A stretch of 64,000 nt of DNA, taken from contig WAQK01000025.1 of NCBI GenBank assembly GCA_015520265.1, positions 9,901 to 73,900 of the forward strand. Direction: 5' to 3'. The stretch is from Pyrodictiaceae archaeon (lineage in GTDB: Archaea > Thermoproteota > Thermoprotei_A > Sulfolobales > WAQK01). The notes below the pieces were generated by a model that did not search any database, was not told where the DNA came from, and saw nothing but the letters and a program-made list of their open reading frames with translations. Shown here piece by piece: positions 4,735 through 55,712 of this stretch (its first letter is position 1; each line of letters opens with the position of its first letter). The position numbers and the translations under genes are program-made.

Positions 4735-5055
4735 GTGTCATCAGGCTTGGAGCTGCCCGACTACAGCGACTACCTCCCCGAGGACGCGCTACGCGAGGTC
4801 AGGGAGGCAGAGGAGAAGCCCCGAAGGCGGAGGAAGAGGAGGAACTACCCCACGTCGAGGGACATAGTAGAGGCTGTGGTGGAGGCGGCGAGGAGCGGGC
4901 CCCGCGACCCCCACGAGTTCCCCGACCTGGTCCTCAGGATACTGGAAGGGAAGGGGTTCGACACCAGCTACGTCACGGTTAAGAGGATATGGAGGACCTA
5001 TGAGGCCTTGGTGAGGCGGGGAGTGATCAGCGATGTTCTCGGGGTGGTTCTTTAG
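4735..5055 (+). CDS. Small hypothetical basic protein
   Basis: In-frame GTG at 4735 after the upstream stop. TATAAG at 4701 lies ~30 nt upstream. KPRRRRKRRNYP basic patch. Confidence 0.45.
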   Translation: MSSGLELPDYSDYLPEDALREVREAEEKPRRRRKRRNYPTSRDIVEAVVEAARSGPRDPHEFPDLVLRILEGKGFDTSYVTVKRIWRTYEALVRRGVISDVLGVVL

Positions 5056-5078: not shown

Positions 5079-6087
5079 CTAGCCCGTAAGGGCCGCCAGG
5101 AGGAACTCCTCGTAGTCGTCGACCTCGACGCACAATTCCCTCAGCAAGGGCCACATAACCGTGGACCAGTACTTCTCCAGCAGCCCATCCCTAACTCCGC
5201 GGTCCAGGGGATCGCTCAGGTTGAGATCCGGCACCCATAGGAGCAGGCTGGACTCATAGTCGGCGACGTTCGTGGATAGGGGAGGCTTAACGGGCCCCAA
5301 CGTCACGTTGGGCCGGGTTATACATCTCGAACCTCCTGCCCGACGCCAGGAGCCTGGCCCCAACCTCCTTCACAACATACCTCAGATAGGGATAGTATAG
5401 CTGGTCTCGGTACCACTCCCACACGCTCCTGTCGTAGGTTGTTATGAAGATGTACGTGTAGTTGAAGATGTTATCCGGTGTGGCCTGCCAGGCGGCCACT
5501 GGCAGATCTGCGGAACAGCACCCACAATAACCATTTTCACAGGATCCACGTATATCAAACCATTAAAGTAGAATGGAAAGGGACAGTATTCACCCACAGG
5601 GTACGAAACTATAGACCCAACATATATTGACACGCTTCCGCGGACTGGGTCATAATAGGCTACCGAGCAGTTAGGCTCCGGTAACCCACGAGCACTGGCA
5701 GCCTCCTTGAAGGAATTACAGTTAAAAACCAGGCTCTCGAGAACACCGTGAAATCACGATTTATGTATTCGCATGACATAGCTGGCTGGTATGTTGCTAT
5801 TATTGGTTACACCTTTGTCCATGTGTAGTTCTAGGTGGTCGATGCCATAGCGGTAGTCTATCAGTATAGTGTATCTGGAGCCGCTGAGCCTTCCACTCCA
5901 ATGGGTCTCCAGGAGCCTAGTCTAGGATCAGGGGAGCCTCTGATAGTTTTATGTAGCCTGGGTTTGTGGGTATCGTGGGGCTGTGTTTGGTCTTCTGGTA
6001 TGCCTGGTACAGGACTATTATTGTCGCCGAGGCTGCGAGGCCTATGAGTATCCAGGCGATTAGGAGGGACCTTCTCCTTTTTGGCAT
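5079..6087 (-). pseudogene. Disrupted gene for a signal-anchored/secreted protein (at least 3 frameshifts plus 1 in-frame TGA)
   Basis: Four consecutive minus-strand ORF pieces read as one protein when joined. MPKRRRSLLIAWILIGLAASATIIVL.. (6087-5917); LLETHWSG..IHKS-TGA(5756-5754)-FHGVLES..VSIYVGS..(to 5442); LPVAAWQATPDNIF..(5499-5287); ITRPNVTLGPVKPP..LAALTG (5363-5079). Confidence 0.6.
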
Positions 6088-6349
6088 CACAAGCAGTCCC
6101 TGGAGACGCGTTTGGATGTGGCGAATTATATTTTTCCCTAATACCGGAAAACTATAGTACTTTGACGATGATACAGATATATGTACAATGATGTGCTGAT
6201 CTAAATTATATTTCTTCATCCCATTCGGTATTACCTTTGGTATTACAACAGGTCACGGACAATGATCCTTCGGTCCGACAACCCTAGATCTCCCAAAGCT
6301 AAAATGCCCTTCCAGGGTTAATGGGATATTACGTTCCAGCTGTTCCTCT

Positions 6350-6615
6350 ATGGTTAGTTTTTTGGTTTACTGGTTTGGTTGTTGTTTGTATATTACGTGA
6401 TGGTGGTTGGAGCGGTGTTTTTGGGTTGTGGGTGCTAGGTCTTGTGGTGGTTTTGTGGGGGTTGTGGGTGGGGGTGGTATTATGTTTGTTGTTTTGTTTA
6501 CTTGTTTTTGGTGTTGTTGGTTTGTGTGATTACTGTTTGTTGTTTGTCTTGGTGTTTGTTTTGCTTGGGTGGGTGGTTTGGTGGTGGGTTTGTTTGTCTG
6601 GGTTTGATGGTGTAG
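6350..6615. repeat. Extreme strand-asymmetric G+T-rich low-complexity tract (C+A-rich on the minus strand)
   Basis: Hand count of 6361-6600: 12 A + 10 C in 240 nt, so about 91% G+T. Degenerate GTT/GGT triplets. G-runs include GGGGGTTGTGGGTGGGGGTGG at 6457-6477. Confidence 0.9.
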
Positions 6616-6661
6616 TTAACTGGCGGTTAACTCTACCAGTGGTTAACATTACAGGTTAAAC
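6615..6661. repeat. Cluster of GTTAAC palindromes (3 exact plus 1 GTTAAAC variant)
   Basis: GTTAAC at 6615, 6626 and 6642; GTTAAAC at 6655. Spacing is 11-16 bp. Each is preceded by G/T-G (GGTTAAC). Confidence 0.7.
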
Positions 6662-6860
6662 CTAACTGTTTCAGGTCTCACCTGTGAGCTAATTCCGGGT
6701 TGATTTACTGTTCCCGTCGTGCCGGAGCGGTCTTTGCGCCTCGTTACTGGTTCGATTACCGGTGTTTGTTTTTAGCAACATATTTTCCGGTTGTGCCGCT
6801 GGGGTTGTCTGCACGATTCCGGAGGGAAAAAGATGGTGAAGCGTAGGTTAGAGCTACATC

Positions 6861-8105
6861 CTAGTGGCTGGCACCCTTGTAGTGTGTCATGATGGCCCTG
6901 ATGGCTGGTTTGGCGAGGATGGCGTAGATGAGGAAGCCTATGGCGTGGATCCCGATGGTCACCACTATCTCTACAGGGGTTGGCGTGTAGGGCCTTATCT
7001 GGCCCAGGCTGTCTGGGATGTAGCTGGGCAGCACTATGGTGAGGGTCTTCTCGCCGATCACTGCTATGACCGTGAGCAGCGCTATGAAGGCCACGCCGCC
7101 ACGCGTGCTCCTCACGCTGGGTATCAGAGCCAGGATCACCGCCGCAACACCCAGGGCTATCCAGAGCCAGAAGAGCAGCGAGAGCCAGGCAGCGGCCCTG
7201 CCCAGCAGCAGCACCTCGAGCTGGGCCTTCTTGAAGGGCTCCGTTGTGTACCAGAGCAGCTCCTGCACCTCGCTGAAGGTGAAGTAGAGCCCCACTATCA
7301 GGGCGCCCGTGGTGACGAAGATGGTCTTCCTATACACGTCCCAGTCAACCCTGAACCCCTTCACACTCCTCTCAGCCAGCAGTAGGACGAGGAGCAGCAG
7401 TGCGGGCCCGCTGGCGAAGGCCGTCGCGACGTAGCGGGGCGCCAGCAGCGCGGTGTTCCAGTAGGGCCTAGCGGTGAGGGCCTGGGAGATGAACGCCGTG
7501 ACAGTGTGGATCCCTATGGCTATGGGTGCCGCCACTATAACGAATGGGACCAGGAACCTGGCCGACAGAGACCTGTCCTCCCTATACCTCCCCACAGTGT
7601 ACAGATAGCCCACAAGGTTGATCACCAGGTAGCCAGTGATAACCACGAAGTCCCAGCCCAGCATCGAGCGGGGAAAGTTGGGGAGTAGCGGCATCAGCAC
7701 CATCGCCCTGAGGGGCCTACCCATATCCGCGATGATGAGCAGCAGCACCACTATGAGCGCCGCCACCGCCTGCACCTCCCCCAGCACAGCTATCTTCCTG
7801 AACCCCGGATGGTTGAACACGTAGGCACCCAGCGCGAACATTATGCCAGCAGCAGCAACTCCGACCCAGAACACGAAGAACGATATGTAGAGGCCCCAGG
7901 GAACGCTGTCGCTCATCCCGGTCAGCACCAGGCCGCCCTGCTCGGACCTTAGGAATATGGGAGCGTGCTGCACGCCCACCCACACGTAGACCCCGTAGAC
8001 AGCCATCACCAGGAGGCCTAGGAGCAGGCCATAGTAGGCCCTCCCCCCTCTAAGGCCCTCCCTGACCACGTACTTGACCGTCTCCACTACCTCGCCCACA
8101 CTCAC
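6861..8105 (-). CDS. NrfD/PsrC-family integral membrane quinone-interacting subunit
   Basis: 414-aa polytopic membrane protein. ATGA overlap with the upstream FeS gene. Gene context is cytochrome c - FeS - NrfD. Confidence 0.8.
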   Translation of the reverse strand: MSVGEVVETVKYVVREGLRGGRAYYGLLLGLLVMAVYGVYVWVGVQHAPIFLRSEQGGLVLTGMSDSVPWGLYISFFVFWVGVAAAGIMFALGAYVFNHPGFRKIAVLGEVQAVAALIVVLLLIIADMGRPLRAMVLMPLLPNFPRSMLGWDFVVITGYLVINLVGYLYTVGRYREDRSLSARFLVPFVIVAAPIAIGIHTVTAFISQALTARPYWNTALLAPRYVATAFASGPALLLLVLLLAERSVKGFRVDWDVYRKTIFVTTGALIVGLYFTFSEVQELLWYTTEPFKKAQLEVLLLGRAAAWLSLLFWLWIALGVAAVILALIPSVRSTRGGVAFIALLTVIAVIGEKTLTIVLPSYIPDSLGQIRPYTPTPVEIVVTIGIHAIGFLIYAILAKPAIRAIMTHYKGASH

Positions 8106-9133
8106 TTCTCACCACCTCCCTCCTTGGCAGCGGGGGTGCGGGCCGGGCCGAAGAAGTAGAAGAACCTGGGCCTGGTGCCAGCCTCGGGCTTCAACACGAA
8201 GGCGCCGTACTCCTCCAGCACCCTCCTGATGGGGCTCTCAGGGTCGTTAAGGTCGCCGAAAACCCTCGCGCCCACGGGACACACCTCGACGCACGCAGGT
8301 ATGCCTCCATCCCTGGTCCTGTGGATACACCAGGTACACTTCTCCACCACGTGGACCTGGCGGGGCACGTTGCCTAGTATATGCATGTTGGGGTTCAGCT
8401 CCAGCACCGAGGGCTCCGGCACACCCCAGTTGAAGTGCCTCGCACCGTAGGGGCAAGCCGTCATACAGTACCTGCAGCCGATGCACCTCTCATAGTCTAC
8501 CACCACTATGCCGTCGGGCTCCCTCCAAGTAGCCCTCACGGGGCAAGCCATGACGCATGGCGGGTTCTCGCAGTGCATACAGGCGACCGGCACGTACACC
8601 ATGTCCTCCTTGGGCGCATCAGTGTAGTCGAGCTTGGCGTGGAGGAAGTCTATGGCCTCCCCCTCCCTAGGCGCCTCTAGGACCTTAATCCACTCGATCC
8701 CATTATTCCTGGCAACATTGTTCTCCATGACGCACGCGTAGGCGCAGCGCCTGCAGCCGATACACTTGTTCACGTCGAGGGCCATGGCGAAGGCCACACC
8801 CTGCCTCGCCGGCGTTGCCTTGACCTTAACAGCCTCGCAGCGCCTCCTGGCCTCGGCGCACTCCTCCGAGCCCTCGCCATACTCCCTGCAGATCTCCTCC
8901 ACCTTCCTGGAGCACCACTCCTTGATCCTCTCCTCCTTCCACTCGGCCTTCCTGGCCAGGGTCTCCTCGGTCTCGCGCCGCGGCGGTACGCCGAGAACCT
9001 CGGATAGACTGACTGGCTTTAGCATCGACATCAGCGTGGACCTGCTGACACCTATGAAGGAGATCCCGGCCGCGAAGACGCCGGCCTTGAGCAGGTTCCT
9101 TCTCTTCTCGTCAACCCTCCTAGACCCGCTCAC
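8102..9133 (-). CDS. Tat-exported 4x[4Fe-4S] ferredoxin subunit (NrfC/PsrB/DsrO-like)
   Basis: Start reassigned to the in-frame GTG at 9133, which overlaps the cytochrome stop (GTGA). Twin-arginine signal EKRRNLLKAGVFAAG. Cluster motifs CIGCRRCAYAC, CMHCENPPCVMACP, CIGCRYCMTACP, CTWC..CVEVCP. Confidence 0.85.
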   Translation of the reverse strand: MSGSRRVDEKRRNLLKAGVFAAGISFIGVSRSTLMSMLKPVSLSEVLGVPPRRETEETLARKAEWKEERIKEWCSRKVEEICREYGEGSEECAEARRRCEAVKVKATPARQGVAFAMALDVNKCIGCRRCAYACVMENNVARNNGIEWIKVLEAPREGEAIDFLHAKLDYTDAPKEDMVYVPVACMHCENPPCVMACPVRATWREPDGIVVVDYERCIGCRYCMTACPYGARHFNWGVPEPSVLELNPNMHILGNVPRQVHVVEKCTWCIHRTRDGGIPACVEVCPVGARVFGDLNDPESPIRRVLEEYGAFVLKPEAGTRPRFFYFFGPARTPAAKEGGGEK

Positions 9134-9816
9134 GGCTCCCCACCCCTCTTCCCGATTGGGGCCACCCAGAGGATTATACCCAGACCCGCCAGCACGGCCA
9201 CCACGCCTCCAAGTGCAATGCTGGACTCGTCGGGAGGACTCGGCCTGTCGGAGGGCTCCGGCAGTATGCTGAGGGCCGGCATCGTTGGGTCGTGGGGGTT
9301 GTGGCACTCGACGCAGGCCTTGGCAGGCTCGACGCTGAGGTCCCTATACTCGGGGCAGATGTGGAACCAGTAGCCCACACCCTTGTAGCCCTCCACCAGC
9401 TCAGCCGTGCCCCCGCTACACGTGTAGGTCTGGTTCCCGTGGGCGTGGAGCTGGTAGTCCCTATAGATGTCAGCATGGCAAGTGGAGCAGACCTTGTTGA
9501 GATCCATCAGGCTGTCCCTCGGATGGAGGCCCGGTATCGATATATTGACTCCCCCCACCAGCACGTCAACCTGGGGCGCCTGGTGGCAGTTGGAACAATA
9601 AAGGCCTCCATGGGCGCCCTCCGCCAGATCTATGCCGTGGAACTCGTTGGACCTCGACTGCCCAGTCACTGTGAGGGCTGCGTGGCACTGGGAGCAGGGA
9701 TAGAACTCCTGCCCCTCGCTCGAGGCCGCCAGTATTGGCGCGTAGAGGGCCGCCGCCAGCAGCAGGAGAACCGTTAGCCTGACCCACGAAACCATGGCAT
9801 CCCAGCCTCGGCACAC
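9130..9816 (-). CDS. Membrane-anchored tetraheme c-type cytochrome
   Basis: Four CXXCH motifs (CSQCH, CSNCH, CSTCH, CVECH). N-terminal signal MVSWVRLTVLLLLAAALYAPILAASS (likely true start at 9795). C-terminal TM helix IALGGVVAVLAGLGIILWV. Confidence 0.85.
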   Translation of the reverse strand: MCRGWDAMVSWVRLTVLLLLAAALYAPILAASSEGQEFYPCSQCHAALTVTGQSRSNEFHGIDLAEGAHGGLYCSNCHQAPQVDVLVGGVNISIPGLHPRDSLMDLNKVCSTCHADIYRDYQLHAHGNQTYTCSGGTAELVEGYKGVGYWFHICPEYRDLSVEPAKACVECHNPHDPTMPALSILPEPSDRPSPPDESSIALGGVVAVLAGLGIILWVAPIGKRGGEP

Positions 9817-42072: not shown

Positions 42073-42171
42073 GGGCCCGTCGTCTAGCCTGGTTAGGACG
42101 CCGCCCTTACAGGGCCAAAGGACGCCTAGGAGAGGCGGAGGTCCGGGGTTCAAATCCCCGCGGGCCCACCA
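42073..42171 (+). tRNA. tRNA-Val (anticodon UAC) with a 21-nt canonical intron (42112-42132) and encoded CCA
   Basis: Acceptor GGGCCCG/CGGGCCC, D arm GTCT..GGAC, anticodon stem CCGCC/GGCGG, loop CT-TAC-A[intron]A, T arm CGGGG-TTCAAAT-CCCCG, then ACCA. Confidence 0.85.
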
Positions 42172-55072: not shown

Positions 55073-55166
55073 ATGCCCCTTAAAAGATAAGGGCTCAGGT
55101 ATTACCTTAAAATCTCCATACGAAGCATCCTGCTTGATAGAACGCATCTTTCCATACTTGTCCCAC

Positions 55167-55186
55167 TCCACTGGAAGCCAAGGGGT
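55167..55186 (+). repeat. ORB-like element 1: TCCACTGGAAGCCAAGGGGT
   Basis: Exact 20-mer shared with 55485-55504. TCCA-C-TGGA dyad followed by a G-run. Confidence 0.8.
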
Positions 55187-55250
55187 TTAAAAAGCGAGGT
55201 TTATCATGCATGTGTGTAGAATCGGCGAGGCGCGACCGAGAACCCGGTAT

Positions 55251-55280
55251 AAGCCCCCACCCCATAGCTACCACTCTACA
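55251..55280 (-). repeat. Degenerate inverted ORB-like element
   Basis: Reverse complement is TGTAGAGTGGTAGCTATGGGGTGGGGGCTT. GGTAGCTATGGGGTGGGGG matches GGAAGCCAAGGGGTGGGGG of element 2 at 16 of 19 positions. Confidence 0.5.
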
Positions 55281-55484
55281 GGACTACATATACCATGGCC
55301 AGTCTCCCTCCATGTATGCAGATTAAGGAGTGACGCTAGTGGCAGTACCGTGGCAACGAATTAGCATCCTCCATCAATGAATAACCTTAACGGATTAGTG
55401 AACGAACACAATTATAGAAATCTATATATAGAGATCATTATACAAACCGACCGGCACAAACGCCATATCCAACATAAAACTAGT

Positions 55485-55509
55485 TCCACTGGAAGCCAAG
55501 GGGTGGGGG
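55485..55509 (+). repeat. ORB-like element 2: TCCACTGGAAGCCAAGGGGTGGGGG
   Basis: Exact 20-mer repeat of element 1 with an extended G-string. Followed by two half-sites TTCCACTAC / CTCCACTAC. Confidence 0.8.
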
Positions 55510-55571
55510 TTTCCACTACCTCTCCACTACACGTACTACTATACGTGTATACGGTTTATAGGACCCCTCTG

Positions 55572-55591
55572 CTTCCACTGGAAGCGGTGGG
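55572..55591 (+). repeat. ORB-like element 3: CTTCCACTGGAAGCGGTGGG
   Basis: Perfect 15-nt palindrome GCTTCCA-C-TGGAAGC (55571-55585) followed by GGTGGG. Confidence 0.7.
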
Positions 55592-55712
55592 CTCCATACG
55601 CAATGAGGGTTTGTGAATAGAGATTCACGTTTAATATATTTAATAATGTATATTTGATCAAGACAAACCCTGTCAGTGTGCGTGTCCCCGCTTACCCGGC
55701 CTATAGAACTAC

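Follow-up and report, generated by a model that had tools for sequence, protein, structure and literature searches.

A G+T-rich intergenic tract conserved base by base among Pyrodictiaceae archaea forms the core of a putative ~500-nt non-coding module

What maintains an intergenic stretch of about 265 bp in which one strand is nearly devoid of A and C? The question is posed by a locus of an uncultured, hyperthermophilic Pyrodictiaceae archaeon located within the 64,000-nt stretch of contig WAQK01000025.1 analyzed here (hereafter, the window, in which all positions are counted). The original prediction described ~91% G+T over ~265 bp, with 12 A and 10 C between 6361 and 6600, an irregular mixture of short units without an exact tandem repeat, and G-runs at 6457-6477 and 6567-6588. 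This description proved accurate throughout. By base count, the plus strand is 90.2% G+T over 6350-6615, the 240 nt at 6361-6600 contain T 124, G 94, A 12, and C 10, and both G-runs are found at the quoted positions. As for repeat units, TRF detected only weak arrays of 6-12 nt (two to four copies, scores of 30-40), and periodicity is limited to a weak signal at ~4.8 nt. A skew scan, proposed for the whole genome and run across the 64 kb, found the tract to be unique there: sliding 240-nt segments have a mean G+T fraction of 0.494 (sd 0.050), with the peak at 6357-6596 reaching 0.9125 versus 0.667 for the non-overlapping runner-up, and the tract was again the sole G+T extreme with segments of 40, 60, and 100 nt. 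An assembly artifact can be dismissed: six more metagenome assemblies of this species, all independent (L001-L006), contain the tract, and so do the four lineages L007, L099, L104, and L105.

The tract sits at a junction of converging transcription, and the following features define its immediate surroundings:

6341-6615, no strand assigned: the G+T-rich (plus) / C+A-rich (minus) tract, core of the conserved module, delimited by composition and identity to relatives
6321-6659, plus strand: a 112-codon ORF of V/L/G/W/F/C type, judged not to be the cause of the conservation
6861-8105, minus strand: nrfD, encoding an NrfD-type membrane subunit, the last gene of a multihaem cytochrome / Fe-S / NrfD operon (Pfam PF03916 and ORF list)
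5079-6085, minus strand: a decayed gene for a secreted protein (start MPKRRR...), a neighbor outside the element, recognized by its frameshifts and a deletion polymorphism

To the left, a plus-strand operon encoding a GTPase, a 205-aa protein, and a ~102-aa protein ends at 5055. To the right, an A5 run on the plus strand (6827-6831) corresponds to T5 on the minus strand just past the nrfD stop codon. The decayed gene begins downstream of the tract with its own start. Besides the frameshifts, it shows two polymorphisms, a 330-nt deletion and a C run of either three or four (C3/C4). Identical NrfD proteins are encoded on 15 metagenome contigs, and the nearest named relatives belong to Pyrodictiaceae/Desulfurococcales (Pyrodictium, Hyperthermus, Pyrofollis, and Pyrolobus; NrfD identity of 61-66%). 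No synteny of the left flank was found in Pyrodictium, Hyperthermus, or Thermodiscus. Synteny breaks down at the locus, with neighboring genes varying in their presence, and virus-like genes are found ~10 kb away in one haplotype.

Comparison with L104 (GCA_054044545.1), in which proteins are 95-98% identical to those of the window, clarifies the relationship between the tract and its neighbors. The order in L104 is nrfD, an intact gene for a 483-aa surface protein (stop at 7863 in L104), an A/T-rich spacer, a block of GTTAAC motifs, the tract (~8040-8300), and an intact 404-aa gene (start at 8555), the last being the counterpart of the decayed gene of the window. The 483-aa protein has its own S/T-rich linker and membrane anchor, and its gene has its own stop codon and a T6 run. 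Thus, the tract is intergenic even where both neighboring genes are intact. Of the counterpart of the 404-aa gene, most has been deleted in L099 and nothing is present in L102 or L105; the tract is retained in both L099 and L105 despite this loss.

The tract is far more similar among lineages than neutrally evolving positions. Between the window and L104, 256 of the 275 aligned positions (93%) are identical, without gaps, and the GTTAAC block is 90% identical, compared to 67% in the adjoining spacer and 68.5% at four-fold degenerate sites (615 sites); the excess of the tract over the neutral level is significant (binomial p = 3e-23). With respect to L099, the tract is 86% identical (91% in the last 145 nt) and so is the GTTAAC block (86%), versus 64% and 54% for the spacers, one of which includes 61 gap columns, and 70% for four-fold sites. 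In L007, the tract is 89% identical over 61 nt, where the contig ends (~87-89% over the first 54 nt), the GTTAAC/palindrome block 98-100%, and four-fold sites of nrfD 62%, with the spacer toward nrfD being unalignable. In L105, the most distant lineage (69% identity of a neighboring protein), the tract is 83-85% identical over 6436-6503, after which the contig ends. The length is nearly invariant (266, 266, and 264 nt in the window, L104, and L099, respectively), the A and C positions are as well kept as the G and T positions, and the tract occupies the same locus in all five lineages. In these alignments, the sequence, length, and keto composition of the tract are preserved far above the neutral level, regardless of codon position. 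Collectively, the comparisons identify the tract as a lineage-specific, apparently non-coding element that strong purifying selection has maintained, at the level of nucleotides, in no fewer than five related lineages of Pyrodictiaceae.

This conservation bears directly on the proposal that the tract is the fossil of a Thr/Pro/Asn-rich linker of the neighboring decayed gene, for which an intact ORF reading through the tract in relatives had been named as a check. No such ORF exists in L104, where neither of the two intact neighbors reads through the tract. Since the tract is intergenic with both L104 neighbors alive, it is not a fossil linker of the kind proposed. A broader version of the idea, a neutral fossil of a Thr/Pro-rich linker from a lost surface protein or cytochrome c gene, draws on the more distant lineages L008-L012, in which nrfD is directly followed, in the same orientation, by a gene encoding a monoheme cytochrome c that combines a T/P-rich linker with an anchor at the C-terminus; this arrangement was observed in Pyrodictium, Hyperthermus, Thermodiscus, and two additional MAGs. 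In that slot, the C+A strand of the tract is the coding one, and one of the minus-strand frames stays open over 82 codons of T/P/N/Q/K. The tract resembles the Thr/Pro-rich linkers of archaeal surface-anchored proteins, such as the cytochromes c of L010 and L012 and the 483-aa protein of L104, in the C+A-rich coding strand, orientation, neighborhood, and length. Unlike these linkers, however, it lacks a startable frame, periodicity, and a membrane anchor, is purer in composition (90% versus ~71% A+C in the one living linker measured, that of L010), is conserved at all codon positions, and lies in an intergenic region beside real linkers, including that of the intact L104 neighbor. Period-3 power is only 1.13x the mean in the tract, with no dependence of G/T on phase (p = 0.41), compared to 3.9x in the genuine L010 linker. 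Neither tblastn nor a profile of five cytochrome c proteins revealed any remnant of a cytochrome domain in the window and close relatives; the matches were to low-complexity sequence only. Finally, conservation two- to four-fold above neutral at a constant length is at odds with a neutral fossil. On these sequence comparisons, the fossil-linker reading appears close to refuted, and we consider it very improbable.

Could the plus-strand ORF be the selected entity instead? The alternative is a small, very hydrophobic membrane protein, either of 112 aa or in a C-terminal version of 76-77 aa. Several observations are compatible with this possibility: the window and L104 share an uninterrupted ORF with identical ATG and stop codon, a 76-aa version with the same stop is present in L099, gene callers predict the ORF, the tract is free of indels, and polar residues are retained (RDGG, CDYC, and a C-terminal N-x-T/S). 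The substitution pattern, nevertheless, is not that of a protein-coding gene. Compared to L104, pS is 0.093 and pN is 0.069, and the ratio of 0.74 resembles those of the other five frames (0.77-1.16); against L099, pN/pS is 0.67. Differences within the ORF relative to L104 are spread over the three codon positions (10/7/8). Furthermore, the pS of 0.093 is far below the 0.315 found at neutral sites (p = 2e-7), which implies constraint on nucleotides rather than on amino acids. In L099, the ORF has ACG in place of the start codon, an in-frame TAG, and two 1-nt deletions that shift the frame, and the L002/L005 haplotype (two of the seven assemblies of the species) carries a TGG to TGA nonsense change at 6584. 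Polymorphisms in the ORF comprise 4 synonymous and 13 non-synonymous changes, close to the neutral ratio (codon count from SNPs). The ORF has no Pfam match, and a search of 1.84 billion representative proteins yielded no homologues outside the lineage, the only relative being that of L099 (P0084 and P0085). There is some likeness to type I toxin-like proteins, which are encoded by short, very hydrophobic ORFs and are often inactivated, but the ORF here is larger, consists of G/T codons only, and shows no signal of selection at the protein level. The initial view of the plus-strand ORF as a by-product of a stop-poor composition is supported, and a hydrophobic protein is an improbable explanation. 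The companion statement on the minus strand stands in part: none of its three frames has a start and two contain stops within the tract, but the third is the 82-codon open frame, which directly follows a stop. The claim that no gene explains the extreme keto/amino skew was correct.

The suggestion of a structural or functional non-coding element was right in spirit. As an account of the conservation, a G-quadruplex on the plus strand or an i-motif on the minus strand, in DNA or RNA, could appeal to the 7-11 runs of three or more G per tract, to G4Hunter maxima of 2.2 in the window, 1.72 in L104, and 1.88 in L105, and to the retention of TGGGTGGG(G/T)GTGG in all lineages. Against it, no lineage contains the canonical motif of four G3+ runs with loops of 1-7 nt, the maxima drop to 1.24 in L099 and 1.12 in L007, both of which have lost the second cluster of G-runs (6567-6588), T-rich stretches without G-runs are equally well conserved, and scores above 1.5 occur in >200 segments elsewhere in the 64 kb. 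The tract is thus alike G-quadruplex-prone sequences in its many G3+ runs and high peak score, and unlike them in the missing canonical motif and in a score that is not kept in L099. We regard this explanation, too, as improbable. Nor does a conventional RNA fold emerge: neither strand folds better than shuffled sequences (z = -0.02 for plus and +0.44 for minus), and RNAalifold consensus structures from two to four lineages display almost no covariation, with 3 compensated pairs out of 133. The sole covarying helix is a 6-bp hairpin at 6322-6338. The only match to Rfam 15 is a snoZ43 RNA at 6113-6203, outside the tract, with 24.7 bits against a gathering score of 43; this candidate was rejected as sub-threshold, its box-like motifs not being kept in L099.

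A remnant of a foreign element had also been put forward and finds no support. Such a remnant might be the end of a virus or plasmid with telomere-like repeats, or of a transposon. TTGTT repeats have been reported at lipothrixvirus termini, and a likeness of the tract to these repeats and to G/T-rich telomere-like ends, along with the breakpoint character of the locus and the virus-like genes in one haplotype, could be cited in support. Telomeric G/T repeats include TG1-3 in yeast and GGTTAC in fission yeast; the tract shares the strand composition and the recurrence of TTAC next to G, but it has no repeat unit and is internal and intergenic, with no telomerase or chromosome end involved. Searches of IMG/VR with two patterns and of phage records with blastn (a set without plasmid records) returned no matches, there is no second copy in the 64 kb, and terminal inverted repeats are lacking. 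The position is the same in five lineages, and conservation above the neutral level is not expected of a dead remnant. This origin appears extremely improbable. A literature search on TTGTT virus ends and CA-rich archaeal RNAs gave no direct lead. A metagenome search with the pattern of the GTTAAC block retrieved 82 loci that proved to be unrelated low-GC GGTTAAC repeats. An IS200/IS605 element (TTAC target) was rejected, with end hairpins not in the right places and the locus fixed.

Conservation is not confined to the tract, which, judging from the arrangement of conserved motifs, is the core of a putative non-coding module of ~500 nt spanning roughly 6203-6762. Its other components are:

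6203-6255, no strand assigned: an A/T box (6203-6213), next to it TTCTTCATCCCATTC, and then, in tandem, GGTATTACC-TTT-GGTATTACA (6227-6247), a candidate promoter plus operator or hairpin
6322-6338, plus strand: a small hairpin, TGGGAT-ATTAC-GTTCCA, in a poorly conserved spacer, for which the evidence is weak
6614-6632, no strand assigned: a perfect palindrome or hairpin, AGTTAAC-TGGCG-GTTAACT, identical in the window, L104, L099, and L007
6615-6662, no strand assigned: the GTTAAC block, with sites at 6615, 6626, and 6642 plus GGTTAAACC (6654-6662), forming the nrfD-proximal edge
6743-6762, no strand assigned: a conserved island, GTTACTGGTTCGATTACCGG, in the spacer beside nrfD, kept in L099 and in part in L007
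6231-6759, plus strand: 11 copies of TTAC in a single orientation, at 6231, 6243, 6329, 6367, 6393, 6498, 6530, 6649, 6705, 6744, and 6756

At the distal end, 6209-6256 is retained in the window, L104, L099, L102, and L105, and persists even where the adjacent minus-strand gene has been deleted. In L104, L102, and L105, the first tandem copy is GGTAATACC, which creates a perfect 8-bp inverted repeat. As read from the alignments, the 6-bp stem of the hairpin at 6322-6338 survives two double changes (U-A to C-G and G-C to A-U) among the window, L104, and L099, and its G.U wobbles pair on the plus strand only; the hairpin is not kept in L105. At the nrfD-proximal end, 3 of the 10 GTTAAC sites of the 64 kb fall within 33 nt, and a TATA-like box on the minus strand, GGTTTAACC, lies ~25 nt upstream of the GTTAAC hairpin. 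Beyond the GTTAAC block, conservation stops sharply and the sequence is lineage-specific in all four lineages; the remaining spacer around the GTTACTGGTTCGATTACCGG island is ~54% identical, with many gaps. The 11 TTAC copies compare to 1.2 expected from the frequency in the window and 2.1 in local shuffles, none of 5000 of which reached 11, and the plus strand contains no GTAA between 6200 and 6800. TTAC is found at homologous positions nine times in L099 and in seven of the eight cases checked in L104, and its copies supply 8 of the 26 A and C bases within the tract. Four pairs are spaced as TTAC-N8-TTAC (0.75 expected), with such pairs bracketing the module at both ends. A role as a replication origin was discarded: L099 has not retained the ORB-like CCAGTGG, and a far better candidate lies at ~55.2-55.6 kb.

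This inventory of motifs sustains the main rival to the explanation that we favor, namely a DNA-level platform for protein binding (a TTAC array, GTTAAC palindromes, and GGTA-N-TACC) that would serve as a regulatory, partition-like, or nucleoid-organizing site. The oriented TTAC excess with nine conserved copies, the paired copies at both module ends, the perfectly conserved palindromes, and the islands within diverged spacers, which look like binding sites, are all consistent with it, as is the recurrence of the 11-mer GGTATTACCTT at 55098. A candidate binder is the small HTH-like protein encoded at 4750-5055, the gene of which adjoins the module in L102 and L105; its match to HTH_32 is weak, however (E = 0.002, below the Pfam cut-off). 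Short sites account neither for the 90% conservation of the intervening 265 nt nor for the two-letter composition. We consider such a platform possible but on the unlikely side; after it, the hydrophobic protein, the G-quadruplex, the fossil linker, and the foreign remnant follow in order of decreasing likelihood.

Our preferred reading is that the core of the module, under purifying selection, acts strand-specifically in transcription or as RNA, a proposal that in our judgment has about an even chance of being correct. It is a best guess that builds on composition, the polarity of the T-runs, and the conserved boundary motifs. On the plus strand, two or three T5-T6 runs are present in each full-length lineage (window, L001, L002, L104, and L099), and no such lineage has a run of four or more A on the plus strand of the tract. 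Lengths of the T-runs drift between 4 and 6 among lineages. Because T5-T6 runs occur in every full-length lineage, transcription of the plus strand would meet several oligo-U signals, and the resulting U-rich RNA might constitute a polar stop that catches transcription initiated at the A/T-box promoter (~6203-6213) or in the GTPase operon before it proceeds toward the antisense strand of the nrfD operon. Runs of T5 or longer on the sense side, the hallmark of oligo-T terminators, are thus found on the plus strand in all five of these sequences. The FttA factor binds U-rich RNA (PMC11616081). The tract is alike the archaeal oligo-U terminators (FttA/aCPSF1) in its T5-T6 runs, U-rich context, and position at a converging-transcription junction, whereas known terminators measure tens of bases and conserve only the T-runs, in contrast to the 265 nt conserved here base by base with A and C excluded.

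Read from the minus strand, the tract would yield an RNA of ~90% C+A (C 39%, G 4%, A 51%, and U 6%) that would be unable to pair with itself and contains no U-tract in any lineage; such an RNA should therefore neither fold nor terminate. It could start just past the TATA-like GGTTTAACC and carry the AGUUAAC-N5-GUUAACU hairpin at the 5' end. This minus-strand promoter candidate is without a good BRE, and the hairpin at 6322-6338, together with the A/T box retained in five lineages, would instead point to a plus-strand transcript. In composition, the putative minus-strand RNA is C-rich, G-poor, unstructured, and longer than the 80 nt expected of bacterial rut sites, which it also resembles in lying downstream of an operon. 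Archaea are not known to have Rho, and for this reason the tract is not classified as a rut site. In addition, FttA prefers U-rich RNA, which here corresponds to the opposite strand (PMC11616081). A terminator or spacer role does not explain why nearly every position is conserved. Pairing with a partner nucleic acid, or the binding of a protein, could be what keeps the sequence constant base by base.

Variation within the species adds a feature that the transcription/RNA model does not predict. Across seven assemblies of the species, the tract contains 16 variable sites in 265 nt (6.0%), compared to 1.1% in the surrounding 16 kb and 2.4% at four-fold sites (Poisson p = 4e-8), and no indels. 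The excess is dominated by G<->T (A<->C) transversions, which account for 9 of the 16 sites in the tract versus 18 of 167 elsewhere (Fisher p = 5e-5). Transitions in the tract occur at neutral density within the species and four- to five-fold below neutral between species, as expected if slightly harmful variants fail to be fixed. The G/T changes occur in both directions, and for 7 of the 17 polymorphic sites the two alleles recur in other lineages, suggesting that a minority of sites toggles fast and the rest is frozen. Because the toggles are bidirectional, oxidative G-to-T damage alone fits poorly. Introgression from L099 was rejected as the source, with only 4 of the 17 minor alleles matching that lineage, as was a DGR target (adenine-centered variation), given that there is no template copy in the 64 kb and no reverse transcriptase among the neighbors. 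The toggling may be caused by misalignment at run boundaries, two-way mutagenesis by oxidized guanine, recombination between lineages at a highly similar stretch, or selection for variability. Two variable sites, 6450 and 6509, switch a T-run between 4 and 5 nt, and in haplotype B and L104, T5 is lost at one of the two and gained at the other, an exchange that is suggestive only. A more speculative extension, which we hold to be rather unlikely, is a tunable strand-polar switch in a hyperthermophile: an RNA, or DNA in single-stranded form, would be kept unfoldable by its two-letter alphabet, read by or paired with a partner, and adjusted through a small set of hypermutable G/T toggles that vary within as well as between species, some of which change T-runs between 4 and 5.

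Low-complexity intergenic tracts of prokaryotes are normally dismissed as debris, and this one has been kept base by base and at constant length while neutral sites diverged by ~30%. If the tract acts as RNA, it would exemplify selection, at ~100 °C, against structure and termination signals; if it acts as a polar stop, it would represent a terminator zone of archaeal transcription that is unusually long and defined by composition. The combination of strong long-term constraint with a five-fold excess of polymorphism within the species at recurrent G/T sites is unusual and might reveal either a local mutation process or a tunable element. Moreover, the tract provides a clean marker for this uncultured lineage of Pyrodictiaceae.

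Next to the G+T-rich tract lies a gene for a secreted protein, and a second, extra surface-protein gene is found at the opposite end of the conserved non-coding module in one related Pyrodictiaceae lineage, L104:

Window 5079-6085, minus strand: secreted-protein pseudogene with several frameshifts, adjoining the tract
L104 6412-7863: extra gene for a 483-aa surface protein, between nrfD (the last gene of the cytochrome/Fe-S/NrfD operon) and the module

Alleles of the secreted-protein gene within the species differ by a C3/C4 run and by a deletion of 330 nt. L104 has an intact version (8555-9769, 404 aa); the gene is mostly deleted in the related lineage L099 and absent from L102/L105. The extra protein of L104 consists of a signal, a large domain with no Pfam match, an S/T-rich linker and a C-terminal anchor. 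The interval between nrfD and the module in the window, L099 and L007 contains only a spacer of 195-300 nt which cannot be aligned. In more distant Pyrodictiaceae (L008-L012), the nrfD homologue is immediately followed by a gene for a small membrane-anchored monoheme cytochrome c (CxxCH; duplicated in L011) with a low-complexity linker; this cytochrome is absent from that position in the lineage of the window.

The spacer between the tract and the A/T box, which marks the module edge distal to nrfD, includes 12 consecutive A in L102 (1100-1125), the most distant of the lineages, compared with A4-A5 at most in the others. On the minus strand these read as T12, which would strongly stop transcription of that strand. 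In Rfam, the flank at window 6113-6203 weakly matches snoZ43, a C/D-box family, with 24.7 bits against a gathering score of 43; this match is most likely due to chance because the box-like motifs are not conserved in L099.

Two haplotypes of the species, represented by other metagenome assemblies, diverge past the helicase gene: L001 (18048-21245) carries a series of small genes, including VirArc_Nuclease, forming a virus-like island, whereas L002 (17935-21217) encodes TusA and an aldehyde:ferredoxin oxidoreductase. Tandem arrays of a GTTAACC...GTTAACC...GTTAAC unit, spaced by 54-59 nt, were observed in two unrelated, low-GC JGI metagenome contigs (L051 360-821 and L062), retrieved solely because they share the search pattern.

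Two further features lie elsewhere in the window:

Window 42073-42171: tRNA-Val(TAC), the sole tRNA within the window
Window 55073-55712: origin-like intergenic region of 640 nt

The length of the tRNA gene (99 nt) suggests that it contains an intron. The intergenic region, bordered by genes for a CBS-domain protein and TiaS with no adjoining orc1/cdc6, combines A/T-rich stretches (~55400-55445 and ~55620-55660) with three direct copies of TCCACTGGAAGCCAAGGGGT, two perfect (55167 and 55485) and one at 80% (55574). Since these copies resemble archaeal origin-recognition boxes (a dyad with a G-string), the region is a candidate replication origin. Located 26 nt past the stop of the bordering CBS gene is the second copy (55098-55108) of an 11-mer, GGTATTACCTT, which includes the palindrome GGTA-N-TACC and is also present at the edge of the module (6227-6237). 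GGTATTACCTT may be a protein-binding site common to the module edge and the 55-kb region.
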